IMG/VR virus record: IMGVR_UViG_2910649936_000002
Coordinates: 2,713-66,712 of that record
Strand: one strand, 5' to 3'
Source of the DNA: a virus
Lineage: Duplodnaviria > Heunggongvirae > Uroviricota > Caudoviricetes
Length of the DNA: 64,000 nucleotides
Shown here one piece after another: positions 1,706 through 62,239 of this stretch. The position numbers and the translations under genes are program-made. The notes below the pieces were generated by a model, which searched no databases, was not told where the DNA came from, and worked only from the letters and a program-made list of their open reading frames with translations. Positions within the stretch are counted from its first letter, which is position 1, and each line of letters starts with the position of its first letter.

Positions 1706-4700
1706 CTACATAGATTTTCTATCTCTAATTTCCGCATTTTTAGCTTCATTATATCTAGTATCTCCATGTACTCTTGTAAACCCTAAGTATCCATTCATCC
1801 TATCGATTTTAGTAATATCTTTACTTCCACAAACGGGACATTCGCTCATATTTAATTCTTCATGTCCGCAATGCTCACAATATGCAAGTGAAAGATTTAC
1901 ACCCTCATAAAAACCTTTTTTCATAGCTCTACGAATCAATGTTACTACAGCTTCTTTATTATAATTTACAGGATAACGACAATATTGAATTTTCCCACCA
2001 TTAAAGTAATTCCAGAATCTTTCTTCATAGTCTTGTTTTTCTATTGGAGTAATATCTTCCGATACATGGCAATGAAATGAATTTGATACGTATTCTCTAT
2101 CAGATACATTTTCAATAATTCCATATTGTTTTCTGAATTGTTGTACTTGCAATCCGCATAAGCTCTCAGCAGGCGTTCCGTAAATTGCATATAACAATTT
2201 ATCTTCTTCTTTGAACTGATTGATTTTCTTATTTATATATTTCATTACTTCAAGAGCAAATTCACCATCTTCAATAATGGATTTCCCGTTATATAGTTCT
2301 TGAAGTTCATTTAACGCGGTAATACCAAAGGATAATGTCATTGGTTTGAGGATGGATTTAATTTTATCTGTTGGTTTTAATGTTCCTCCATATAATCCAC
2401 CTTCACAAAACGCAACCGGATTTACAGAAGCTTTTATTTCTCCAATATAATCATATGTTCTTTTATGAAGATTACGGATCATTTCAAGATAATAATCCAG
2501 AACTTCCCAAAAATCTTTAGACTCATTTCTTGATTTTGCAAGAATCATCGGCAAATGTAGGCTAACAACGCCTAAGTTAAATCTACCTTCAAATACCGCT
2601 TTATCATTTTCATCCGCCGACTCCATTCCGCCCCTTTCATACCACGGAGAAAGAAATGCTCTGCAATTGTGAGAATAAACACCACTAACTTCAAAATGGC
2701 TACTATCTGTTTCGACATCATAGCTATAGTCATTTTTTTGAACTTTATTCACACTTACTACTGTTGAAATCTGATGATTTCTTTCTGAAAAGCTTTCAGT
2801 ATAATTATTACGTTTTTTCTCACAAGCAATGTATTCAATAAGTTTATTATCTGGATAAAATTCTATTCTATATCTAATAAGAGTTGGGTTATTTGAATTA
2901 TAATGGTTATAATATACTTTTGCAGGCATTCCCAGAGATTGCGCAAGAGCCATTTGTTGTAATGCAAGTTCTTTATTTGTAGATCTAATTTGTACAACAG
3001 ACCCACCGTGTGAATTCGGGTTAATATATCCATCTGCATCAATCATACCAGCAAGAAATGCATATTTACTTTCATTATTCCAGGAAAACACTTCATTAGG
3101 AATATGCCTATTCTTTTTATTTATTCCTCCGAACATACTAGTAAAATAATTAATGGCATACTGAAGATTTGATTTGTCATCTGCAATAGTACATATATCT
3201 TTATAATTCCCTTTACTTCCTCTATTTTGATTTACTATTTTTGAGTCTAATGAAAAATATTTTTTCATCGTAGATATATATTTTTCTGCAATTTCGTTTT
3301 CACCATTTTCTGCAATTGATATAAAAACATGATTATTTTGATAGCATCCATCACAAAGCACTACGCCTAACAACCAAGCTTTATCGGTATTGAATATAAT
3401 GTTTTCTTGATTATATTGTTCTGAATTTATATATATATTATCGTTGCAATTTAATTCGCAAACTTCTTTTGTAATTCCAGAACATGTGGTTATTTTATGA
3501 TCTGATGTGCAAAGTAGTCTTCGCCCGTTTGATAATTGAACATCTACCCATTCATCTGATAAATTACGAATAATCTTTTTTGTATTTACAAATCCATTTT
3601 TCGTGTCATATATCAAAACATCTTTTAATTCCATGTACAAATGTGGTTGACCTACTATTTGCTGTTTTACTTCAAAATGGTCAGTAAGCCTATTCCACAT
3701 ACGTTCGAAAGATTCCACATATAGTTTATCATTAAATTGATATGTTATTACTTCTTTGCCATCAACGCATCCCATTGGACTAACTACCTCGCCATATTTC
3801 TTGTACATACTCGGCACGTATCCTTCACCCGTAAGGGAAAGCCAGTCTGGGTACATAGTTTTCATGCTACACTCAACCCCGGCATTAAACACATCTTCGT
3901 TAATGCAACCTTTACCGTGCAAATTTTCATCATATAAAAACACTAACTTTGGAAATAAAACTGGTTTTTTAAAGCCCTTTTTTCCCTGTCCTTCTTTATG
4001 CACATTTAAAAATGTAATTGAAGCCATCTTTCCAAACTTACTTGTATCAAGACCAAATGTCATTGTAACGAAGGGATAGTCCCCTCTGGAACTGCCAACC
4101 GTGTTTAACTTATATTCAATTCCTTGCCACCCCTGTTCAAAATCTCTTTGGACTTTATTCGTAGCATACTCATTAGCAAGTTTTTCTATCGATACATCAT
4201 CGCATTTATTTTTTCTTGTTATTTCTAAATATTCCTTTTTATAACTCTCAAAGCTCTTTTTGGCATACGGTACTAAAATCGTATCAACTCTTGGAACTGT
4301 AAATCCTCCGTATTGTTGTGCGGCGGTTGAAAGAATAATATCACCCATAACATCAAATGCAGTGTCAAGTGAATTCGGCTCATTATACCATACGTTACCC
4401 ATTTCAAAGCCATCTTTCATCACTTCCCCAACTCGGAACAGACAGCAATTAAACGTGTCTCTTCTAGCAGCCATATCATGCACATATATATATCCGTCAT
4501 TGCATGCTTGCTTTTCATCCGTTGTCATAAAGAATTTCTGATACAATGCTTTATTTAAAACATTAAATACAAGACTTCGTTTTGTAGCTACTAAAGCAGA
4601 ATCAGTATTGGCATTGTCTTTATCACCTATATACATAATAGATTGACTTTTTTCATATACATCATCCATCATTTTTACAAAATCCAATTTATAATTTCTG

Positions 4701-39527: not shown

Positions 39528-42086
39528 TTATATATTCTCTGTAGGCACACTCATTTTTTTACCAATTATTTCTACTACCGGAACCGTCACACCATTCCCT
39601 GCCTGTTTATACAATTGACTGTCACTATTCACAAACGCTGCGCGTTCAAAATAATCATCTGTCCATCCTTGCAGGCGGAAACATTCGCGAGGCGTTAAGC
39701 GGCGGATTGCTATATAGCACTGGTATTTTTCGTACCAAACGGCGTAACAGATATCTCCATTCGGAAGCTGAATATAGATTCCATCACCGTAGTCACCATG
39801 TGTATCACATTTCAATGCAAATAGATTGTCCTTTTGCACCGAATCAATCGTGTTTGAACATCCATCTGCTCTTACTTCGTGTTCAAGAAATGTATGCCTA
39901 CTGACTTTTAATTTCCCTGATTCATAATCTTTTCTTATTTTCTTCCCATACTCATTTCTTGTAGTCCTCAGACACCCCAAAGGTGATATAGCTACGCCAT
40001 GCCTATCCTGTGCCGTCAGCGTAAACATCGGTTCTCCATTTTCTTTAAATCTACGTCCATTCTGGCGTTTTTCTGCTCTATCTGGTGTGAGGACCGGGAT
40101 CGCAACCTTCGGCTCATTCCCTGAATGTCCGCAACCAATAATAGTTCTTGAAATGCTACCATTCCCATGAACAACTTTGTGTTGATTATAATTGTTGCCT
40201 GGCAATTCAAAGTCTTCGCTTATTTTTATCCCCACACTCGGCTCTCTGCCACCGCCCTGCATAGTTCCTAATGCAGGACTTATTCCGTCTTTGTCGTAAA
40301 CTCTGTAAGCATTTGGATTTTTCCTTTTACTTTCCATCATTCCTATCTGGCGAATACTATTTTCTCCATCCGCTCCCGTGACAGGAAGTATTTTTGCTCT
40401 ACCGAATCTTCTAAGATGTCCGACAGTGTATATCCGCTCCCGGTGCTGCGGGACGTACCACTCGCTATGTATATTTTGCCATTCGATATCATACCCAAGT
40501 CTGTCCAATTCAGAGAGGATTGACAGATAGTCGAGTCCTCTGTTGCTAGAAAGCATTCCTTTAACATTTTCATAGATAAGCCATTCAGGTCTGTTTTCTT
40601 CTTTTTGTTCTTCCAGCAGTCTAAAAATTTCTCGTATAAGGCTTGATCTGTCACCTTCAAGCCCTGCTCGTTTTCCGGCGATGGAGAAGTCCTGACAGTT
40701 GTGGACTCCCATATTGTTGGCTGTGTAGCTGTTGTCATTTTCTACCTCCATGTTGTACACAATTTCTTTTCTTTTTGGATTATATTCAATATTTTTTACT
40801 GGTTGCCATAAACACCCATCAATAAAATAAGATAGGCTTTTTATGCTATTCGGTCTGAAAATAATCCGCCATGTATCTTTCTGATTTACAATGCGATTTT
40901 CTATAATATGCTGTTTTAGCTTCTCTGTGTAATAAATGCTATATCCAACATGATGCACTTTAGAAACGCATTCGCCCAATTGATATGCAAGTTTTTTACT
41001 TATAGTCGTCGCTTTCCATACGCCGCATGAGTAACTTCCATCTCCGCTTAAATATCCATTAAGGAAATACTTTAAATGATCGGTGTCCAAATCCATAATA
41101 AACTGTGGAATTGTTTTATTCTCTGCGCCACGTCCGCATTTCAAACACAAAGAAAATAACCTATTGTCTTTTATAATATATTTTGTAACTGATTTTCCAA
41201 TAGATATATGCATCTTGAACGATTTACTACGAGATTTAAACTCATCTTCCTTTCCGTCCCCTATGCAGAAAATAACTCTTCTATCACTCGATGGTCTGTC
41301 ATTCCTTTTACTGTCTCTTAAATATCCATCAGCAACATACCTACCAAGAATCCAACACTCATCTTCTGTTAAATCATAAATATTCTTATTGTTGTTATTG
41401 ACAGTAAACTGAATAAGTTCATTTCCATCAAATTTTTGTACTTCTTTCCAATACGGATCGGAAATTTTTATTTCATATTTTCGTAGTTCATTATTCCATG
41501 TTTTTATTTTGTCTCTTACATAAAACCTATGATTCCCAGTCACTTCTGTTATCGGACTTCCTTGCACTTTTAGAGTATATATTCCCCTTTTGACATTAAC
41601 CATTGGTTTTATAACACGCTGCCATCTATTCTTATGAGTGAGAACCATATCGCCGCTTTGGATTTCTTCTATCGGTATTTTTCCCCTATGAGTGGTGATT
41701 AATGTCCCTTTTACAAAACAAGGCGCTCCGAAGCACCAGCAGTCTACTGCCGGAAGATCTTTGACTCGTACTGCTCTAATGTCATTTGCGTACCATTCTC
41801 CATTACGGTATTCCTCCTTTAAAATTTCTTTTTGTCTTTTCTTTAATGGTAATGTCTTTAAATATTCTCTCTGTTCATCGGTTATCAAGTGCATAGATGT
41901 GTAACTTGCCGTTGCGAACTTATCCCACTCGCAAAATCCAACGCATTCATGTCCTGCCAGTTCCATTCCACGCCGGAAACCGCCGATTCCGGCAAAAAAG
42001 TCTATAAATTTTAATTTCTTTTTGTTACTGTTGGAATAATATATGTTATCTCCTCCTCCATTCCTCATCAAATTCTGATTATTCAT
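39528..42086 (-). CDS. DNA (cytosine-5)-methyltransferase interrupted by a LAGLIDADG intein at the catalytic PC motif
   Basis: Motif I IDFFAGIGGF. Motif IV split as FGAP | intein | CQDFSIAGK. ENVKGM (VI), QHRERIY (VIII), GNGVTVPV (X). Confidence 0.85.
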   Translation of the reverse strand: MNNQNLMRNGGGDNIYYSNSNKKKLKFIDFFAGIGGFRRGMELAGHECVGFCEWDKFATASYTSMHLITDEQREYLKTLPLKKRQKEILKEEYRNGEWYANDIRAVRVKDLPAVDCWCFGAPCFVKGTLITTHRGKIPIEEIQSGDMVLTHKNRWQRVIKPMVNVKRGIYTLKVQGSPITEVTGNHRFYVRDKIKTWNNELRKYEIKISDPYWKEVQKFDGNELIQFTVNNNNKNIYDLTEDECWILGRYVADGYLRDSKRNDRPSSDRRVIFCIGDGKEDEFKSRSKSFKMHISIGKSVTKYIIKDNRLFSLCLKCGRGAENKTIPQFIMDLDTDHLKYFLNGYLSGDGSYSCGVWKATTISKKLAYQLGECVSKVHHVGYSIYYTEKLKQHIIENRIVNQKDTWRIIFRPNSIKSLSYFIDGCLWQPVKNIEYNPKRKEIVYNMEVENDNSYTANNMGVHNCQDFSIAGKRAGLEGDRSSLIREIFRLLEEQKEENRPEWLIYENVKGMLSSNRGLDYLSILSELDRLGYDIEWQNIHSEWYVPQHRERIYTVGHLRRFGRAKILPVTGADGENSIRQIGMMESKRKNPNAYRVYDKDGISPALGTMQGGGREPSVGIKISEDFELPGNNYNQHKVVHGNGSISRTIIGCGHSGNEPKVAIPVLTPDRAEKRQNGRRFKENGEPMFTLTAQDRHGVAISPLGCLRTTRNEYGKKIRKDYESGKLKVSRHTFLEHEVRADGCSNTIDSVQKDNLFALKCDTHGDYGDGIYIQLPNGDICYAVWYEKYQCYIAIRRLTPRECFRLQGWTDDYFERAAFVNSDSQLYKQAGNGVTVPVVEIIGKKMSVPTENI
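40698..41720 (-). mobile_element. Intein with LAGLIDADG endonuclease inserted immediately before the catalytic Cys of the C5-MTase
   Basis: Starts CFVKGTLITTHRGK and ends GVHN with +1 Cys, which is the PCQ catalytic cysteine. LAGLIDADG motifs ILGRYVADGYL and FLNGYLSGDGSY. Confidence 0.75.
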
Positions 42087-45846: not shown

Positions 45847-47040
45847 TCAATACTTCATTTTTTCTCTCTCCCGTACTTTCTCACGTGTTTCCCCATAACT
45901 AAAATACGTCTTATCAAAATCATAATTCATACCCCATACATCATCATTCAAGTATTCATTCATGTGTGTTATAGCAAGTGAACAGTTTGTATAAGGATAT
46001 GGCTGTTCTGCTATTAATTGAAAATCTTCTAATACTCTTTGTATTAATCTTTCAATATCAATGAATCCATATCTCAATGTTCCTTGATGTGGATTTGGGA
46101 CATTTGTATAATCAACCATATCTCTATTAATATCTGCTTTTTCACACTCATCCTCCAGACGTCCAACTCCATGACGTGTTATATATGTTCTTGTGACATA
46201 GCATGTTTCTATATTAATCTTCTCTTTTGGAAAAGTATTTCCAATAATTTCTAACGGATTTTTGACACCTGTGTTACTTGGCGTAAGATGGGGATAATAT
46301 GTTCCATTATTCTGGTCAAGAAGCAATCCCTGTCCATTTTCAAAGATAATATTGGCATAATGGCATAATATTTCATCTCCGCACTTATTTATACAGTCCT
46401 TCATGAAATAAATATCATCTATATATCTGTCAATTAATCCTATACTATAAACAATTTCATCCCATTCCGATTTGTTGATATCTATATTTTCTTCTTTTAG
46501 CTTTTCTAAAAAGTATTCATCTCTAATTCTATATAATAGATTTCGTATATCATCGCTACCTAATACGAATAACTGTGATAGACAAAGATTATATTTTGGA
46601 TAATGACATCGTTTTAAAGTTTCATAAATCCCAACACCACAACTACCGTGTCTATCTTCAGACCGCTTCTCTTCAATCATTTGATTTAAAATCATATCAA
46701 ATGGTGTGGAAATCTTACATAAAGGATGCACATATACTTTTGGAATGAATCCGATTTCATTAAGCTCTTTCCACTCTTGGCAAAATATCATAGGATTTAA
46801 AATAAAATATTTAGAAAGATATGTATGAGCATTATTAAATATTCCAGAGCCAAAATGATGGAAAACATGCCTTATATTATCAGGAGTTGTTACTGTATGA
46901 CCTCTTTGCGCTTCTCCATTGCTACACACAACAATGCAATTTTCATTTTGCATAGCTGCCTGGTTAGAAAAATAATCTGTCATAAATCCCTTTCCCTCGT
47001 CGCCAAAATTAGCACCAATAACAATTTTTATATTCGTCAT
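45847..47040 (-). CDS. Adenylosuccinate synthetase homolog (PurA/PurZ family)
   Basis: P-loop GDEGKGF (PurA GDEGKGK). NGEAQRGHT (PurA GG-x-NAGHT). GSCGVGIYET (PurA GTTGRGIGPAYEDK). YVTRTYITRHGVG (PurA TTGRRRRTGW region). 397 aa, which is shorter than bacterial PurA. Confidence 0.75.
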   Translation of the reverse strand: MTNIKIVIGANFGDEGKGFMTDYFSNQAAMQNENCIVVCSNGEAQRGHTVTTPDNIRHVFHHFGSGIFNNAHTYLSKYFILNPMIFCQEWKELNEIGFIPKVYVHPLCKISTPFDMILNQMIEEKRSEDRHGSCGVGIYETLKRCHYPKYNLCLSQLFVLGSDDIRNLLYRIRDEYFLEKLKEENIDINKSEWDEIVYSIGLIDRYIDDIYFMKDCINKCGDEILCHYANIIFENGQGLLLDQNNGTYYPHLTPSNTGVKNPLEIIGNTFPKEKINIETCYVTRTYITRHGVGRLEDECEKADINRDMVDYTNVPNPHQGTLRYGFIDIERLIQRVLEDFQLIAEQPYPYTNCSLAITHMNEYLNDDVWGMNYDFDKTYFSYGETREKVREREKMKY

Positions 47041-55964: not shown

Positions 55965-56861
55965 TCATACAGCTATCTTCTCCTTTTGTCGCATATAGTT
56001 TTCTACATCTTGTTTCATAATTCTAAAATTTTGTCTCTGGTCATTCATGTAGATATGATTTCTCTTAAAGTAGTCTACAATCCAATCATCTAAATCCATA
56101 TCATTTTCTGTAGCATATGTAACTATTGCTAATAATGATTTTCTATTTTTTTCATCCATTAATTTAGAATTATTGTCTACGTTAATCGTTAGGTCATCCA
56201 ATAGTTCTTCGCAAAATTCAATCTGGTCATCTCGTAAATCATAATCTAATACTTCCCGTACGAAATCATAATCAGATATTAATTCTTCTTCAGGTTCATC
56301 ATCTTTATGAAAGAACTCTTTCATTAATGTTTTTAATATGGATATTTTTGTTGTAACAACGATTTTATCTTTTGTACCACGACGTTTTTCATTTTCTGCA
56401 TTTAATTCTGTGTCCTCAAATTTCAATCCATCTACAGGCTTATTAATTAACTCTTCTTTAAATGCATCCAGAAACTCTAAGAACCTCGCATCGTCTAAGT
56501 TAAAAGTAGTAAAATAATCAAAAGTAGCGATCCATGCATATATATTTTTGCTTATAAAAATATCTTGGTATTTATTTGCGCATACCGTTTCAATACGATT
56601 CATATATTCTGATATCTTCTTAAATTCATCTTCGTACTGTTTATTGTTCAAATATTTATACATATTCCTTGCAGTGCTTGTCCAATTGTCTAAATGGAAT
56701 GTTGCCATTACTGATTCACATACAATTCTTTCATACGTTCCGTTTTTTGGTTCAGATGATGATGGGTGTATAGTATCAAGGAAAAATTTTGAATTGGCAA
56801 TATTTTTAACTTCTCTTGCATGTATGTCAAGATATGTCAAGGCTTTCTGATTTGTATTCAT
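55965..56861 (-). CDS. Hypothetical protein
   Basis: 298-aa ORF downstream of the DUF262-like gene. Confidence 0.35.
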   Translation of the reverse strand: MNTNQKALTYLDIHAREVKNIANSKFFLDTIHPSSSEPKNGTYERIVCESVMATFHLDNWTSTARNMYKYLNNKQYEDEFKKISEYMNRIETVCANKYQDIFISKNIYAWIATFDYFTTFNLDDARFLEFLDAFKEELINKPVDGLKFEDTELNAENEKRRGTKDKIVVTTKISILKTLMKEFFHKDDEPEEELISDYDFVREVLDYDLRDDQIEFCEELLDDLTINVDNNSKLMDEKNRKSLLAIVTYATENDMDLDDWIVDYFKRNHIYMNDQRQNFRIMKQDVENYMRQKEKIAV

Positions 56862-56879
56862 ACCTTTATGATTGTTATA

Positions 56880-57395
56880 TCATCTAACTAATTTGCTAAT
56901 CTCCTTCATTGCACAATTAGGATGAATGACAATACGTACTTGAAACATATCGAATCGCTTTTTTAATTCATTTGGAAGCTCGTCAAAAGTTTTTCCACTT
57001 AGCTTGAAGATCTTCCTTTCCCATTCGATACTTCCATCTTCCTGTTTCATAACCTTTCCATGTTCATCACGCTTCTTTTCTTGATATTCAATTTCTGCAT
57101 CTTCCATCGTTCTCGAAAATTTATGATTTCCGTAACGAATAATACGCATAGCCGCTGTTCGTTGCATGCCATCCACAATATATTGCTGTACAATACCATC
57201 TGTATATGGGATTTCTCCAAGAACAATTGGAGGAAGATACCCACCATTTAGTAACGTTACGGCAATTCCATCTACAAATGAATTATCTGCACAAAATTTA
57301 CGTTGTACATCCTGATTCTCACTAATGTCTCCACCTTTAACATCAGCTAAATATGCACTCACAGGTACATTAATCTCTTTTACCTTTATATCCAT
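56880..57395 (-). CDS. DUF262/ParB-like nuclease-domain protein
   Basis: LPPIVLGEIPYTDGIVQQYIVDGMQRTAAM matches the DUF262 core (iP.i.l....y.viDGqQR) of the GmrSD/DndB/ParB superfamily. Confidence 0.5.
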   Translation of the reverse strand: MDIKVKEINVPVSAYLADVKGGDISENQDVQRKFCADNSFVDGIAVTLLNGGYLPPIVLGEIPYTDGIVQQYIVDGMQRTAAMRIIRYGNHKFSRTMEDAEIEYQEKKRDEHGKVMKQEDGSIEWERKIFKLSGKTFDELPNELKKRFDMFQVRIVIHPNCAMKEISKLVR

Positions 57396-57418
57396 TGTTT
57401 TCTTCCTCCTACTATTTC

Positions 57419-57982
57419 TTACATTAATATTCGTATATTTTCATACGATTTGATGACTTGCAAACAATTCACATATTCTTTTCTTGTTATTTTAAGTTGA
57501 TTTAATATCTCATTAGGTTTATATTGATATACCAGCAATCTTAATACTGCCTGTTGTGTAGTAGACAATTTTTCCATATAAGCTGCGATATTGTCACTAT
57601 ACATTTGCTCAAATATATCGTTTTCTAATGTTTTATTATCTTGTATCATCTCTACTAAACTAATATCTTTACCTTCCGTCACACAAATTGTTTGATCAAT
57701 TGAGCATGCAATTCTATCCGCTTTTCTTTTCTGCCTATTTCTTCTTGTTATTTCTGTCATAATCTTTTTATATAGACATGAATATAAAAAAGCTTCGAAT
57801 TTTTGTTCTCTATCATATCTTTTTAGTACATCAACAAATACTTCATTGGCCAATGAATAAAAATCATCCATATCTTTTTGACTAATCCCACCGAATTTCT
57901 TTAATATTTGATCTACTAACTTATGTAATTTTTTCGCATTGTTTTTGTAATAAATCTCTGTATAATCCATATTATCCTCCAC
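57419..57982 (-). CDS. Sigma-70-family-like transcription factor
   Basis: A region-2-like segment (FYSLANEVFVDVLKRYDREQKFEAFLYSCL) and a C-terminal HTH (QQAVLRLLVYQYKPNEILNQLKITRKEY). Confidence 0.45.
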   Translation of the reverse strand: MEDNMDYTEIYYKNNAKKLHKLVDQILKKFGGISQKDMDDFYSLANEVFVDVLKRYDREQKFEAFLYSCLYKKIMTEITRRNRQKRKADRIACSIDQTICVTEGKDISLVEMIQDNKTLENDIFEQMYSDNIAAYMEKLSTTQQAVLRLLVYQYKPNEILNQLKITRKEYVNCLQVIKSYENIRILM

Positions 57983-57988
57983 ATTGAC

Positions 57989-58594
57989 CTAAAGTAAAAT
58001 CTCATCCACATCCCGAATATTAAATGTTCTTTCCTCTAAACGTTGTACTGTTTTCTGCAATTTATTTTCAGCGATACCAGCCAAGTTTAAATCTAACAAT
58101 GATTGCACTACACTTAATTCATCTTTAATACTTCTTCTCCTTTTCATAATCTCTCTGACTGTTTTATACGACATATAACCAGCACATGCATTTTTATTTT
58201 TATCTAGTTCAATATCATGTAAACAATTACTGAGTTGTTTATCTACATTAGATAAATTCGCAAGCAATTGATTTTTCCGCTTGTTTGCGTCAATTGCTAA
58301 CATATTTAATCCTTCTACTTTTTTCATCCATTCTGTAACAGATTGGGGAACCTGATAGTCTTTACAAACAATTATTTTATTTTCGTTCTTTGCTTTTCTT
58401 TCTGCCGAAGAAATTTCAGGTATCGGAATAACCGTGAAATGAAATCGTTTTAACGTTTTTGGCAAATTATCAACTAAGTTTTTTGCTTTTGAATATTCAA
58501 ATCTTTGCATTTGATTTTTTGGACATGTCTCCACTTTCCCATCTTTGAGTTTGATATACACATCTTTTTGTTGATTACATATAGCATAATCCAT
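57989..58594 (-). CDS. Hypothetical protein
   Basis: 201-aa ORF. Confidence 0.35.
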   Translation of the reverse strand: MDYAICNQQKDVYIKLKDGKVETCPKNQMQRFEYSKAKNLVDNLPKTLKRFHFTVIPIPEISSAERKAKNENKIIVCKDYQVPQSVTEWMKKVEGLNMLAIDANKRKNQLLANLSNVDKQLSNCLHDIELDKNKNACAGYMSYKTVREIMKRRRSIKDELSVVQSLLDLNLAGIAENKLQKTVQRLEERTFNIRDVDEILL

Positions 58595-58637
58595 AAAATA
58601 TCCCTTCTTTCATACATAATTTCGTAAAAATGGTCGC

Positions 58638-58709
58638 AAAATCCCAATTGAGCTAATCGGATTCGAACCGATAAATACATGAATCAAAGTCATGTGCCTT
58701 ACCTTTTGG
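58638..58709 (-). tRNA. tRNA-Gln (anticodon UUG)
   Basis: Minus-strand sequence TGAGCTA TT GCC..GGC A CATGA CTTTGAT TCATG TATTT ATCGG TTCGAAT CCGAT TAGCTCA A. It has a 7-bp acceptor stem, a 5-bp anticodon stem with a 7-nt loop (anticodon TTG), and a T-arm GGTTCGAATCC. CCA is not encoded. Confidence 0.7.
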
Positions 58710-58772
58710 CAATAGCTCATTACATATTTCTATATTTAATTGTTAAAAAATTTGAAAATTTTGCAGAAACGC

Positions 58773-58801
58773 TTGAACAATATCTCGAAAATGTGTAATA
58801 T
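58773..58801 (+). promoter_or_regulatory. Strong sigma-A-like promoter on the plus strand (TTGAAC -17 nt- TAATAT), pointing antisense into the MazF-like gene
   Basis: TTGAAC at 58773-58778, a 17-nt spacer, TAATAT at 58796-58801. No plus-strand coding gene with an RBS follows it. Confidence 0.4.
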
Positions 58802-58963
58802 ATAATATGCATAGTTGTTTCTGCAATTATGTTGTGTTTGAGAAGACATATTTTTAGGTGCGGCAACACCAGTGACAAAATACGTCTTCTCTTTTTTTAT
58901 GTTTACATGTTATCACAAACAAATGTTCTAGTCAATCCAATTCAAAACGTATGTTCTATTTTA

Positions 58964-59323
58964 TTATCTAATCTGAAAATTTGCATCATATACTTTCTTG
59001 ATATTTTTTTGGTTAGAATAATCTGATATATATCCTATATGCTTTAGTATTCTCTTTTTAGAAATCTGTCGTAAACATTCACCAAGAACTATTGAGTCCC
59101 TATCCAATTTGTTATCATTATCTTTTCTAATTAGAGTATGCGTAGGTTGATTCGGATTCTTATTTTTTGTACTTAATGGCATAACTAACGTTGTTGGACT
59201 ATATAAATTTCCAATATTATTTTGTATAATAACCGCTGGGCGTTTACCACCCTGTTCAGAATCGATTACATCTTTCCCAAAATCTACGATTACAACATCA
59301 TATTGCTTTAAGGTTTGTTTCAC
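58964..59323 (-). CDS. mazF: MazF/PemK/EndoA-family endoribonuclease toxin
   Basis: VIVDFGKDVIDSEQGGKRPAVIIQNNIGNLYSPTTLVMPLST...PTHTLI...RDSIVLGECLRQISKKRL is highly similar in pattern to B. subtilis EndoA/NdoA ([32 protein letters not shown]...PTHVEI...RDSVILLEQIRTIDKQRL). Probable GTG start after AAAGGAGG. Confidence 0.8.
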   Translation of the reverse strand: MKQTLKQYDVVIVDFGKDVIDSEQGGKRPAVIIQNNIGNLYSPTTLVMPLSTKNKNPNQPTHTLIRKDNDNKLDRDSIVLGECLRQISKKRILKHIGYISDYSNQKNIKKVYDANFQIR

Positions 59324-59353
59324 TAATCGAATCCTCCTTTCATCTATTTCTAT

Positions 59354-59410
59354 ACAAAAAAAGAATGATGAGGGGACAATGCTCCAGCATCATTCTTACA
59401 TTATTTTTTA
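59354..59410 (-). terminator. Rho-independent terminator hairpin (probably bidirectional)
   Basis: Stem AAGAATGATG / CATCATTCTT (59361-59370 / 59388-59397) with a 17-nt loop. It is followed by U7 on the minus transcript (plus A7 at 59354-59360) and by a T6 run on the plus strand (about 59404-59409). Confidence 0.6.
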
Positions 59411-59677
59411 AATATCTCGTTTTGGCGCACGATTTGTTCTTTTACCATTGAATACATCAATATAACCATAATCATTCGAAACATGAACCGGCTCTCTTTT
59501 TTGACTATCCCATGCTTCTTGTTCTGTTTTAAATAGTCTGGATTCCGGCAATCTAATTGCTCCACACGATCCTACCAATTGTATCACATAGAATTTTCCT
59601 TGTCTTGCGGAAACACGTGCCTTTCTTACATTCATGTTGTTTTCAAGAATATAGCATATATCATCTTTCTTAAACAT
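59408..59677 (-). CDS. Hypothetical protein
   Basis: 89-aa ORF upstream of the terminator. It does not look like an RHH or AbrB antitoxin. Confidence 0.35.
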   Translation of the reverse strand: MFKKDDICYILENNMNVRKARVSARQGKFYVIQLVGSCGAIRLPESRLFKTEQEAWDSQKREPVHVSNDYGYIDVFNGKRTNRAPKRDI

Positions 59678-59688
59678 TATATCATCTC

Positions 59689-59919
59689 CTATTCATCAAA
59701 TTCCAATGTTATATAGTTAAACTTCTTGTCTTTCCATTTCCGAACAACCTTACCGAATTTAGATTTAAGTCTTTCAGCATTTTTATAATTGCCACTTGCT
59801 CCATATGAATTTTCTAAAAGATACCAATAGCTTGCCGGCAATTTATATTCAGTAACCTCCATAATATCTCCTATTTCACAGCAATCTATATTTTCAGTAG
59901 TAAAATCCATTTCGCGCAT
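59689..59919 (-). CDS. Hypothetical protein
   Basis: 76-aa ORF. Confidence 0.3.
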   Translation of the reverse strand: MREMDFTTENIDCCEIGDIMEVTEYKLPASYWYLLENSYGASGNYKNAERLKSKFGKVVRKWKDKKFNYITLEFDE

Positions 59920-59972
59920 TAATTTAGTCTCTCCTTCTATATATTATAGAAGATATTATACCATATACTGTA

Positions 59973-60959
59973 TTAGATTTCACTCAAATCTATCCCATAG
60001 CTTCCTTGAATATACCACTTTTTCGTTGTATCTACACTAGATTGTCCCATCTGTTGCTGTGCAAAGACTGCACCAAAATTTTTTGACATTGTAGAAGCAT
60101 ACCAGTGTCGCAACATATGTGGCGTAATCCCATTGCCATATGTTTTAAATATATCCTTGATAGTTCCTTCCGTTACACGTCCACCACGCCTGGTAATATA
60201 TAATGCATTTTTCGACTCTTCATTGATATATGGAATCTTATTCCTTATTTCTAGCCAACGCTCAATTGCTTTAACGGACTTTCCAGTTAGTAACACACGT
60301 CTTTTTTCACACTCACGATTCTTCCCCTTACCTAATATCAGAATGAATGCACGTTTCTCATTATCATCACCATTTAAAAAAACATCATCTAAGTCAAGAT
60401 TAGCAAGTTCAGTTTCCCTAATTCCAGTTCCCTTTAATAAATTAAAGATAGATAAATTTCGCTCTCTTACCATTTCATCTTTTTTCTTAGACATTTTTTC
60501 TTCAATTAAATTTAATTCTGCAACATCAGGCACAACCGCAATATTAATATTTCCAGAAATCCCTTTGTATCCAGATTTTGATACAACATTTGTTATAACT
60601 GGACATTTATTTGTATCTACTAAATATCCCCAAAAACTTTGCAAACGATTCTTATATACTTCCACTGATGTAGGACTGTATCCTCTTTTCTCTTCTAAAT
60701 CCGTAAGATATTGTTTAATATCTTCAGCTTCTACTTCCATCATGTCTCCTGGTTCAATATCTGAAATGTTCAATTTTTTAATAATTTTACGAGCAATACA
60801 ATCATTTAAAAAATCCCTAATCGTAGTATAATAATCACGTTTTGATTTAGTGCTATTTAATCGAATAAAAAAGCGTGTAATAAATTCCGGTATCTTAGCT
60901 TCTTCAAATTTCCTGTTTAACTGCTCATTTTCTTTTTTTCTAACTTCATCTTTATACAT
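59973..60959 (-). CDS. Tyrosine site-specific recombinase/integrase (XerD-like)
   Basis: Catalytic residues in context: GTGIRETEL (Arg), GKGKNRE (Lys), HMLRHWYAS (His-x-x-Arg), KKWYIQGSY (Tyr). Confidence 0.8.
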   Translation of the reverse strand: MYKDEVRKKENEQLNRKFEEAKIPEFITRFFIRLNSTKSKRDYYTTIRDFLNDCIARKIIKKLNISDIEPGDMMEVEAEDIKQYLTDLEEKRGYSPTSVEVYKNRLQSFWGYLVDTNKCPVITNVVSKSGYKGISGNINIAVVPDVAELNLIEEKMSKKKDEMVRERNLSIFNLLKGTGIRETELANLDLDDVFLNGDDNEKRAFILILGKGKNRECEKRRVLLTGKSVKAIERWLEIRNKIPYINEESKNALYITRRGGRVTEGTIKDIFKTYGNGITPHMLRHWYASTMSKNFGAVFAQQQMGQSSVDTTKKWYIQGSYGIDLSEI

Positions 60960-61085
60960 ATTGCCACCTCCTGTTTATCCCTTTCTCTATTTTGCATATT
61001 GCGCAAAGAAAAAAGCACTGGCTTTCCAATGCTTTTCAAATCATAATTTTAGATATGTAATAATAAGATACTTTGTTTATTTGTT

Positions 61086-61307
61086 TTACAAATAATGTCC
61101 TTCAATATGATAATCTCCAGCGCTTAAAGACAACGACGTATTATCTTTTACCCATTCATTTAATTCTTCGGGAGTTGGAAAAGATATCGCCACATTCAAG
61201 TCAACACAAATCGGCAATCCATCTTCTGGCACTTCAGCATCTTCAACCAAACTTCCTAATCGTTCTTTATCATTTAAAACAATAAAATAATGCCATGATC
61301 TCTCCAT
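61086..61307 (-). CDS. Hypothetical protein
   Basis: 73-aa ORF. Confidence 0.3.
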   Translation of the reverse strand: MERSWHYFIVLNDKERLGSLVEDAEVPEDGLPICVDLNVAISFPTPEELNEWVKDNTSLSLSAGDYHIEGHYL

Positions 61308-61329
61308 AATGTCACCTCATTACATAAAA

Positions 61330-61524
61330 CTATTCTTTTAACTGTAAATAATATTCTATCTGTGCAATCTCTGTTTTAATCTTCTTCATTTCCAATAGAG
61401 AATTAATCGCATTATCTTCATAATTCATAGAATCCATATCTTTCAGATCGACTTTAAAATACTCTTGTAGCTTTTTAAGTCGCTCCCGCTTTATTTCCAA
61501 TTCGTATTCCATTATTTCACGCAT
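61330..61524 (-). CDS. Hypothetical coiled-coil protein
   Basis: 64-aa ORF, charged helical. Confidence 0.3.
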   Translation of the reverse strand: MREIMEYELEIKRERLKKLQEYFKVDLKDMDSMNYEDNAINSLLEMKKIKTEIAQIEYYLQLKE

Positions 61525-61558
61525 TTATATTCTCACCTCTCTACATGAAAGTTAAATT

Positions 61559-62239
61559 TCATCTTATTCTTCTTATACAAAATTCACTCATAAATTCAAT
61601 AATTGCACCATCTTCTCCACTCTCATAAAAAGAAATAAGCAATCCCTTAAATTCTTCTAACTTGTCAATTGGTATTTGAAAAATGCCAATATTATTTTCA
61701 ATCAATACTTTGTTCGCCATAAGTTGTGCTACGCGCTTATTTCCATCAATAAACATTTGTGTTCTGGCAATATAACAAAAGTATTTCAGTGCCTTTAATT
61801 CAATATCTTCTATCTGTTCTATTTTATTTACACACTCTATGATAACTCCTGTTTGTGGTATTTCAGGTTCCCATGATGTTCCACCTATCTGTACGGGTAT
61901 AGTTCTTATTTCTCCAGCATAGCTAAAAAGCAATTCACCAACAATTTTATCATACTCTCTTAATAGTGCGATACAATTCTTATACTCAATATTATCTAAT
62001 AAAAATTGCCATGCTCGTTTCATATTAATAACAAATAAAACTTCTTCTGTTTTTGTTGTTGTCGGTGCGTTAGCTATAATTGCCTCTGTTTTTGGAAATG
62101 TCGTGCCTAATCCCTCTAAATTAGCGCTTTTCCAAATGCTATCTATTAATAGCCTTTTTGCCATTTCAATTGCTGTATCACGCATATTAACATCTCCTTT
62201 AATGATTTTCGTATATATTATACTACGCAAATAGTACAT
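61559..62239 (-). CDS. Fic/Doc-family protein with a non-canonical motif (His replaced by Gln)
   Basis: YIARTQMFIDGNKRVAQLMANKV fits HxFx(D/E)GN(G/K)R except for Q at the catalytic His position. Confidence 0.55.
   Translation of the reverse strand: MYYLRSIIYTKIIKGDVNMRDTAIEMAKRLLIDSIWKSANLEGLGTTFPKTEAIIANAPTTTKTEEVLFVINMKRAWQFLLDNIEYKNCIALLREYDKIVGELLFSYAGEIRTIPVQIGGTSWEPEIPQTGVIIECVNKIEQIEDIELKALKYFCYIARTQMFIDGNKRVAQLMANKVLIENNIGIFQIPIDKLEEFKGLLISFYESGEDGAIIEFMSEFCIRRIR

Follow-up and report, generated by a model that had tools for sequence, protein, structure and literature searches.

We describe a toxin gene of the MazF family (mazF) and its surroundings in a 64,000-nucleotide (nt) stretch of a caudoviricete genome (IMG/VR record IMGVR_UViG_2910649936_000002, positions 2,713 to 66,712), called the window below. 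The window mazF lacks every partner that is usual in its clade, and its own promoter as well. Most likely, the locus is what is left of a MazF cassette that has unusual partners, a degenerate copy standing beside a conserved switch made of a LexA-box promoter and a countertranscript. The original prediction had described an orphan EndoA-like toxin covered from end to end by an antisense transcript, and had read this transcript as a possible RNA antitoxin. The orphan toxin, the upstream terminator and the promoter coordinates all recur in our analysis, and so does the orphan status as an interpretation, whereas the end-to-end antisense unit and the RNA antitoxin do not. An RNA antitoxin for a phage MazF, if true, would add a new class to the known forms of toxin control; what the evidence favours is a more ordinary case, a toxin gene stranded by two deletions. 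The gene and the signals closest to it are as follows.

58964..59323, minus strand: mazF/pemK toxin gene, 119 amino acids (aa), GTG start, open reading frame (ORF) intact
59333..59340, minus strand: Shine-Dalgarno sequence of mazF, AAAGGAGG, 9 nt ahead of the GTG and homologous to the AAAGGAGG before the ATG in the related locus L151
59353..59397, minus strand: intrinsic terminator of the upstream gene w89, with stem 59361-59370/59388-59397 and then U7 at 59353-59360

Judged by its sequence, the product of 58964-59323 is a MazF/PemK toxin homologue, with predicted ribonuclease (RNase) and growth-inhibiting activities. It matches PF02452 (E 2.8e-24; 85.9 bits against a cut-off of 23.1; residues 6-103) and phrog_1936, "MazF-like growth inhibitor" (E 8.9e-20), and its sequence relatives in the PDB are Staphylococcus aureus MazF (2MF2/4MZM, E 2e-18) and Bacillus subtilis EndoA (4MDX/4ME7, E 2e-15), which agrees with the earlier EndoA-like assignment. 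In the alignment with PDB MazF and EndoA sequences, the arginine of GG(K/V)RP and the Ser/Thr of the active-site loop are kept; R28 and T45 are invariant within the MazF clade. The window protein keeps 24 of 24 invariant family columns and deviates at 3 of 42 conserved ones, falling inside the range of the family. It ends in ...YDANFQIR* against ...YDANFGE* in the family, and its gene starts with GTG against ATG in relatives. The identical protein, altered C-terminus included, has been deposited from the isolate Mediterraneibacter sp. NSJ-55 on a 1.96-Mb contig. An exact-protein lookup in the contig index found no record, and a megablast of 56000-62000 against GenBank phages found no match.

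What the window has lost can be read from its relatives. Scanning viral contigs with an alignment of MazF homologues gave 63 loci with MazF 48-67% identical, most of them on 90-175-kb phage contigs, and exact-protein lookups added further loci; the carriers of this cassette, a phage family that includes the prophage described here, are mostly 90-175 kb phages of gut Lachnospiraceae. Genome contigs, searched with the MazF alignment as well, yielded for the most part distant mazEF loci of the canonical chromosomal type, which were kept as a control set only. The synteny in relatives is constant: an integrase, small genes, a divergent small DNA-binding protein, mazF, an ORF of about 93 aa (p93), a spacer of about 250 nt, one or more transfer RNA (tRNA) genes, a 201-aa gene and a sigma-like gene. 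A p93-family ORF starts between -22 and +21 nt from the 3' end of mazF in 67 of 67 related loci and also in L151, L154 and L155, with family membership at hidden Markov model (HMM) E-values of 1e-25 to 1e-43. On the 5' side, every relative but one truncated locus has a divergent ORF of 52-117 aa. Domain matches on record for it are HTH_3/HTH_26 in L004-L007 and L154-L156, and a weak ribbon-helix-helix (RHH) match in L151-L153. Both relatives that were read base by base (L151 and L154) have TTGACA-17-TATAAT between the divergent gene and mazF.

These two partners differ in kind. The p93 protein is without a Pfam or PHROG relative; a PDB sequence-profile search with it gave nothing meaningful and no detectable similarity to MazE, and its AlphaFold2 model, built on a 29-sequence alignment, was too poor for a fold search (pLDDT 54.5, pTM 0.28). 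MazF is basic and p93 acidic (median isoelectric points of 9.3 and 5.5). Since p93 would be co-transcribed and coupled with mazF, is acidic and co-occurs with it in 100% of loci, we infer that it is the most likely antitoxin of the cassette. The divergent DNA-binding proteins are candidates too, with a modular build that resembles classical antitoxins. Many of them share a C-terminal "DDPxxxRLLxY" helix and a K-D-D-T/S-K/E terminus across differing N-terminal folds, which comprise three helix-turn-helix (HTH) sequence types as well as RHH in L151, L138 and L144 (proteins compared: L004, L006, L102-L104, L114, L125-L133, L139, L142, L151 and L154). The shared helix suggests a shuffled module that may serve for partner binding or as a degron.

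Neither partner remains in the window. Searches of the whole 64 kb by tblastn, HMM and phmmer, the neighbourhood of mazF included, found no ORF that resembles p93 or the cassette regulator. For the 3' side we built a DNA profile from 51 unique spacer regions that follow p93, with the window left out. This profile matches the window once, at 58962..58726 on the minus strand (E 2.9e-21), and because the match starts 2 nt past the mazF stop codon, p93 is cleanly absent. About 290 nt are missing with it, and the junction falls within the last three codons of mazF, where it is seen as the altered C-terminus. On the 5' side, about 330 nt are missing, comprising the regulator gene and the mazF promoter. 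The order in L154-L156 is a w89 homologue, a hairpin, the convergent regulator, TTGACA-17-TATAAT and mazF, and w89 and mazF are 415 nt apart there against 84 nt in the window. Comparing this layout with the 84-nt gap, we conclude that the window kept the hairpin but lost the regulator and the mazF promoter. The w89 terminator occupies the place of the relatives' bidirectional hairpin between w89 and the convergent regulator gene. A promoter scan found no promoter-like site from the terminator to mazF, the gap holding the terminator and the Shine-Dalgarno sequence only; mazF starts 37 nt downstream of the terminator stem, and its ribosome-binding site lies about 20 nt beyond the terminator. The cassette-wide synteny is otherwise retained, from the integrase through the LexA-box spacer to the tRNA, 201-aa and sigma-like genes. 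The partnerless layout was seen in 1 of about 70 loci.

A canonical partner is likewise absent. In canonical mazEF, a co-directional, co-transcribed antitoxin gene lies directly upstream of the toxin gene, and the window mazF has no such gene; in the control set, 44 of 78 canonical MazF loci have a co-directional ORF ending between -60 and +40 nt from the mazF start. The original prediction had proposed a search for a MazE/EndoAI homologue. When 44 upstream-of-mazF proteins of canonical loci were compared with the 536 ORFs of the 64 kb, no credible match appeared, and no MazE/PemI-type antitoxin (AbrB or RHH) was found within the 64 kb. Within the 64 kb, the toxin is thus an orphan with respect to MazE, p93 and the cassette regulator alike. 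The upstream neighbour, as had been proposed, shows no sign of MazE type and is separated by a terminator: it is an 89-aa ORF without Pfam or PHROG match, followed by the hairpin at 59361-59397. This hairpin is real (minus strand: folding free energy, dG, of -13.9; z -3.2), but it had been called bidirectional, and here the U7 directly follows the stem on the minus strand, while the T-run on the plus strand is 6 nt off. The upstream side is made up as follows.

59408..59677, minus strand: w89, conserved hypothetical gene of 89 aa, no Pfam/PHROG match
59689..59919, minus strand: w76, hypothetical gene of 76 aa, no Pfam/PHROG match
59983..59955, minus strand: promoter-like site before w76, GTGAAA-17-TATAAT, from the promoter scan
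59973..60959, minus strand: tyrosine integrase, syntenic in relatives, upstream of the cassette position

A transcription unit probably starts at 59983..59955, and read-through from it would be the sole source of mazF messenger RNA (mRNA).

The second part of our finding concerns the 244-nt spacer that follows mazF in the window. The plus-strand promoter noticed earlier belongs to a conserved small RNA (sRNA) unit that ends before mazF and is equally present beside intact cassettes. On the opposite strand, a promoter with LexA boxes reads away from mazF. The elements of the spacer are listed below.

58945..58956, minus strand: LexA (SOS) box 1, GAACATACGTTT, 8 nt past the mazF stop codon
58907..58935, minus strand: sigma-A-type promoter TTGACT-17-TAACAT with TG, reading away from mazF, start predicted near 58900
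58917-58928, minus strand: LexA box 2, GAACATTTGTTT, in the promoter spacer
58808..58898, plus strand: predicted sRNA of about 91 nt, consisting of a 5' stem-loop (58809-58832), a linker UGUUGUGUU, a terminator hairpin and U7
58773..58801, plus strand: sRNA promoter TTGAAC-17-TAATAT, homologue of the relatives' TTGAC(T/A)-17-TAAAAT/TATAAT
58761-58770 and 58817-58826: TTGCAGAAAC / GTTTCTGCAA, a perfect inverted repeat of 10 nt with the sRNA promoter between its arms

The sRNA promoter lies exactly where the original prediction had placed it. It had been called near-consensus, which it is not: it matches the consensus at 8 of 12 positions, below the scan threshold of 9, and the promoter scan of this A+T-rich region gave 13 promoter-like sites against 21.2 in shuffled sequence. 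By homology with the relatives, the site is nevertheless a real promoter. Its transcript had been thought to run for about 600 nt across the whole toxin mRNA, but a plus-strand terminator that had been missed intervenes: a hairpin at 58840-58891 (dG -17.5, z -4.0; arms of 15 nt, 93% complementary; apex GGUG-CGGCAA-CACC), followed by T7 at 58892-58898. Because of this terminator, a plus-strand transcript from 58773 should end near 58898. The predicted sRNA thus stops 65 nt short of the mazF stop codon (58964-58966) and overlaps none of the coding sequence. The 65-aa plus-strand ORF that had been mentioned is present, at 58829-59026, and has no Shine-Dalgarno sequence, as stated.

The conservation of this unit was surveyed in 42 unique relatives. 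Nearly all have a promoter matching at 9 or more of 12 positions; the sRNA is 71-138 nt long, and the terminator hairpin has a median dG of -21.5 and z of -3.5. The basal stems of the hairpin differ wholly in sequence between relatives, yet they always pair, and the T-run is always next to them; as a background, a hairpin of this kind stands before only 0.8% of the 7093 remaining T-runs of these loci. MAFFT with RNAalifold on the terminator hairpins recovered only the 4-bp apical stem, the basal stems varying in length, and covariation in the basal stems was judged from independent folds and this background control. Of 36 unique loci, 29 have a hairpin that folds more stably on the sRNA strand than on its complement (60 G-U pairs against 35), in a comparison whose hairpin boundaries came from the sRNA-strand fold and which somewhat favours that strand. 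The window copy has the features of the family, namely the convergent promoter, the 5' stem-loop, the long hairpin with an apical GGUG-N6-CACC and the U-run. At gathering and at permissive thresholds, Rfam gave no family for the sRNA.

Two observations concern pairing within this unit. In the apical loop GGTG-N6-CACC (window 58840-58891; hairpins of L001-L154), the six central bases are CGCCAA in most phages and the exact reverse complement, TTGGCG, in L096, L114-118 and L134; they are CGGCAA in the window and L109 against TTGCCG in L001, L008 and L092. The flipped loop, together with the freely co-varying basal stems, suggests that leader and countertranscript recognise each other by loop-loop (kissing) contact, or that a site in double-stranded DNA is read either way. 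As for the inverted repeat, GCAGAAWCGC is kept just upstream of the -35 element in relatives and its complement in the 5' stem-loop of the sRNA, with substitutions that partly match. This repeat may represent two paired operators, or else form a long-range stem within the sense leader.

The partner of the sRNA appears to be the LexA-box promoter. Two GAAC-N4-GTTT boxes, 28 nt apart, flank and overlap TTGACT-17-TAACAT, and by their sequence they are predicted to be LexA operators. Their form matches the LexA operators of B. subtilis and of clostridia, the clostridial box being GAACnnnnGTTT/C (PMC4234289). In the 105 nt that follow p93, strict GAAC-N4-GTTC has a density of 8.0 per kb; in the remainder of the loci the density is 0.022 per kb, which makes an enrichment of about 360-fold. 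Read in the orientation of mazF, the relatives' spacer begins with a LexA box, TTGACA, a LexA box, TATAAT, an A-run and the long hairpin, and continues with a short ACACATAA-like linker, a small stem-loop and the complement of TTGAC(T/A)-17-TAAAAT/TATAAT. In L097-L101, the first LexA-like box (CGAACATTTGTTCTG) lies inside the 3' coding end of p93 and the second right past its stop codon; because CGAACATTTGTTCTG is within the coding sequence, operator region and cassette physically overlap in these loci. Since the U-run of the sRNA ends where the LexA-box transcript should begin, the predicted sRNA is complementary over its whole length to the first approximately 90 nt of that transcript. Downstream of the LexA-box promoter follow these genes.

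58648..58719, minus strand: tRNA-Gln(UUG), the first product downstream of the promoter; at the same position in many relatives
57989-58594, minus strand: 201-aa conserved protein, syntenic in relatives
57419-57982, minus strand: sigma-70 region 2-like protein (PHROG "RNA polymerase sigma factor", E 7e-07), syntenic in relatives
56880-57395, minus strand: GmrSD_N/ParB-like domain protein, downstream of the sigma-like gene

In several relatives the sigma-like and GmrSD_N/ParB-like proteins are fused as one 700-aa protein.

Based on these findings, we propose a history and a mechanism for the locus, and we consider it rather probable that the reading as a whole, a stranded mazF remnant beside a separate SOS/countertranscript element, is correct. 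The ancestral cassette would have consisted of a divergent DNA-binding protein (HTH or RHH), a strong promoter, mazF and a translationally coupled, acidic p93. One deletion would have removed the regulator gene together with the mazF promoter, and another p93, leaving its junction in the last three mazF codons. Being promoterless, with a terminator directly upstream and a GTG start, mazF may be expressed weakly or not at all, and the partnerless toxin would be tolerated because it is hardly expressed. The loss of the promoter would logically precede or accompany the loss of the neutralising partner. The LexA-box promoter would fire on the mazF strand but away from mazF, into tRNA-Gln, the sigma-like gene and the replication genes, and host LexA would be its repressor, as in the phage GIL01. 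The convergent promoter would make a countertranscript of about 90 nt, whose own terminator ends it precisely at the start of the leader. This sRNA may damp or gate the SOS-controlled early operon as a countertranscript or immunity RNA, and mazF would not be its target.

Several observations weigh against this proposal. The mazF ORF is intact and has a good Shine-Dalgarno sequence, and read-through of the terminator may still yield functional MazF. The window copy of the sRNA unit is the weakest of its family, with TTGAAC as its -35 element and a hairpin that is more stable on the opposite strand (-23.2 vs -16.3), a difference due to two A-C mismatches in the sRNA stem. As to the ancestral cassette, the choice of p93 over the divergent DNA-binding protein as the neutralising partner is one that we infer; the divergent proteins combine their common C-terminal helix and tail with different N-terminal folds, just as modular antitoxins do, and the correlations of pairwise identity with MazF (r 0.74 for p93 vs 0.64 for the DNA-binding protein) do not discriminate between the two.

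The intact ORF, with all invariant residues and its good Shine-Dalgarno sequence, would also suit a working solo toxin, a case akin to the alternative in the original prediction of an antitoxin encoded elsewhere, in which MazF is made at a low level by read-through and is neutralised in trans by MazE, p93 or another inhibitor from the host genome or another prophage, with a role in addiction, exclusion or abortive infection. The promoter-like site at 59983..59955 could feed such read-through across a w89 terminator that is only moderate (dG -13.9), and non-cognate phage proteins that bind MazF do exist, namely AimX and YosL of phi3T (PMC10769878). We nevertheless regard this as unlikely, though worth keeping in mind: no antitoxin candidate lies within the 64 kb, the lost strong promoter and the change from ATG to GTG point to reduced rather than maintained expression, and the layout, found in a single locus out of about 70, is no architecture that recurs under selection. 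An antitoxin might instead be sought close by, in w89 or w76 as a novel replacement of the usual partners, since they are directly upstream on the same strand, as antitoxins usually are, and belong to no known family. For w89 the synteny led us to reject this role. Its homologue coexists with a complete cassette, where the convergent gene and the bidirectional hairpin lie between it and mazF; none of the 63 viral-contig loci has a w89 homologue in the 3.5-kb flanks of mazF, which means that the two are not linked; and in the window itself the terminator separates it from mazF. A w89 or w76 antitoxin is thus highly improbable. That the layout is an artefact of assembly, with the missing segments collapsed or lost, is barely credible. 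Nothing specific speaks for it beyond the cleanness of both deletions, and the identical protein with its altered C-terminus has been deposited from an isolate genome, reading frames and signals are intact at both junctions, and no flanking repeats are present that would promote collapse.

The remaining alternatives concern RNA. The sRNA is not a replacement antitoxin because the unit occurs in about 70 relatives whose MazF has protein partners, and its trans-pairing with the mazF mRNA, over the translation initiation region and the coding sequence, is no better than with shuffled sequences. The antisense control of mazF that had been suggested earlier therefore finds no support from an sRNA that has its own terminator. 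The sRNA could still act in cis through an unterminated mazF 3' untranslated region (UTR), which on entering the spacer would be complementary to it over its full length, as in txpA/RatA and bsrG/SR4, with decay of the RNase III type. No U-tailed minus-strand terminator was found in the stretch that separates the mazF stop codon from the sRNA region, the T-run of 58840-58891 being on the other strand, and the unit always lies just downstream of the mazF-p93 operon. However, the sRNA ends 65 nt from the stop codon and covers no coding sequence, its 3' end falls where the LexA-box transcript begins and so links it to that promoter, it is found in all the relatives that have protein partners, it has no complementarity in trans to the mazF initiation region or coding sequence, and some relatives have a small hairpin right after p93. 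Such a cis action is improbable. A purely RNA-level control of MazF, in which the read-through mRNA would meet the countertranscript through its unterminated 3' UTR and the LexA switch would set the level, is in our view very improbable. If true, an RNA-controlled MazF would be a hybrid of type I and type II systems that couples an mRNA interferase to the SOS response and to the lysis-lysogeny decision. A type III (ToxIN-like) array was also looked for; 58500-60000 has no tandem repeats, and upstream of the terminator lies a protein-coding gene.

Comparison with known systems helps to place both parts of the locus. The toxin is a clear homologue, of MazF/PemK fold, of those in MazEF/EndoA-EndoAI (B. 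subtilis ydcDE, S. aureus mazEF and plasmid pemIK). Unlike these systems, neither the window nor the about 70 relatives have a co-directional upstream MazE/PemI (AbrB or RHH); the partners in this clade are the divergent HTH/RHH protein and the downstream acidic 93-aa protein, both deleted in the window. Three-component loci with a separate regulator are represented by omega-epsilon-zeta and paaR-paaA-parE. The relatives' cassette matches their division of labour between a DNA-binding protein, a toxin and an acidic partner without a DNA-binding domain, but its regulator is divergent, its toxin precedes the putative antitoxin, and its toxin family is MazF. The type I systems txpA/RatA and bsrG/SR4 also have a convergent small RNA just beyond the 3' end of the toxin gene. 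Their toxins are small membrane or hydrophobic peptides, whereas that of the window is a predicted soluble RNase of MazF fold, 119 aa long, and the sRNA here stops short of the coding sequence and is tied to another promoter.

Short countertranscripts are found in phages, such as P22 sar, P1/P7 c4, the P4 CI RNA and lambda OOP, and in plasmids, such as pIP501 RNAIII and pT181 RNAI. The predicted sRNA is likewise short, highly structured, constitutively promoted, convergent and fully complementary to the 5' leader of a key early/replication operon; its hairpin loop suits loop-loop contact, and its hypervariable stems are as expected of specificity determinants. It has no sequence or Rfam relationship with them, its target promoter is LexA-boxed, and the first product downstream is a tRNA. 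By this analogy, the most plausible role of the sRNA is that of a countertranscript gating the early operon under SOS control, like P22 sar, P1 c4, P4 CI and the copy-control RNAs of plasmids; it may act by attenuation, decay or interference. As for the LexA-box promoter, host LexA directly represses a phage promoter in GIL01, and paired SOS boxes there likewise lie over the -35 element and the spacer of the promoter heading the early genes (PMC4551915). GIL01 is a 15-kb tectivirus, in contrast to the roughly 100-kb or larger phages here, and the window promoter additionally faces a countertranscript. Among MazF inhibitors, AimX and YosL of phi3T/SPbeta are small phage proteins that are unlike canonical MazE in architecture and that bind and block MazF (PMC10769878). 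The p93 protein could be functionally of this kind; AimX and YosL mimic the C-terminal helix of MazE and target the host MazF, whereas p93 is coupled to a phage-borne one.

The window has about 32% G+C, and essentially all its large ORFs are on the minus strand. Because it encodes phage replication genes (DNA polymerase, helicases, a RecJ-like nuclease, ligase and NrdD) together with an integrase, we take it to be a prophage, with Mediterraneibacter as host. Among the replication genes, 45847-47040 (minus strand) encodes a 397-aa homologue of adenylosuccinate synthetase (PF00709, E 2e-32) whose best PHROG is phrog_1211 (E 1.7e-61), the PurZ-type enzyme of phages with 2-aminoadenine in place of adenine; it is a PurZ or PurA candidate. 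No HD-type dATPase or MazG-like gene was identified among nine checked ORFs between 42256 and 51323. The 852-aa protein at 39528-42086 (minus strand) has DNA methyltransferase PHROG matches and weaker primase and NrdD-like ones, an unusual multidomain protein in the replication module. A MazF homologue of 38-44% identity was also seen at 3492-3848 in the virulent, approximately 100-kb Enterocloster phages CB473P1 (L002) and PMBT24 (L003), in the tail module between the major tail protein and the tape measure protein. It is apparently partnerless, with no p93 or recognisable antitoxin beside it. These phages were dropped as a guide to the window locus, as their MazF context differs (tail module, no p93).

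The main value of these findings lies in the insight into a family of gut Lachnospiraceae phages more than in this particular gene. Against Pfam, PHROGs, Rfam and PDB sequences, a MazF clade with p93 and a modular divergent DNA-binding protein is new, and its two constant partners raise the question of which one is the antitoxin. Also new against the same libraries is the conserved spacer in which a structured countertranscript opposes a LexA-boxed early promoter head-on; its hypervariable stems and flipped apical loop are the pattern expected of an RNA immunity or specificity determinant. Both novelties are open to direct test in the cultured host, Mediterraneibacter sp. NSJ-55.

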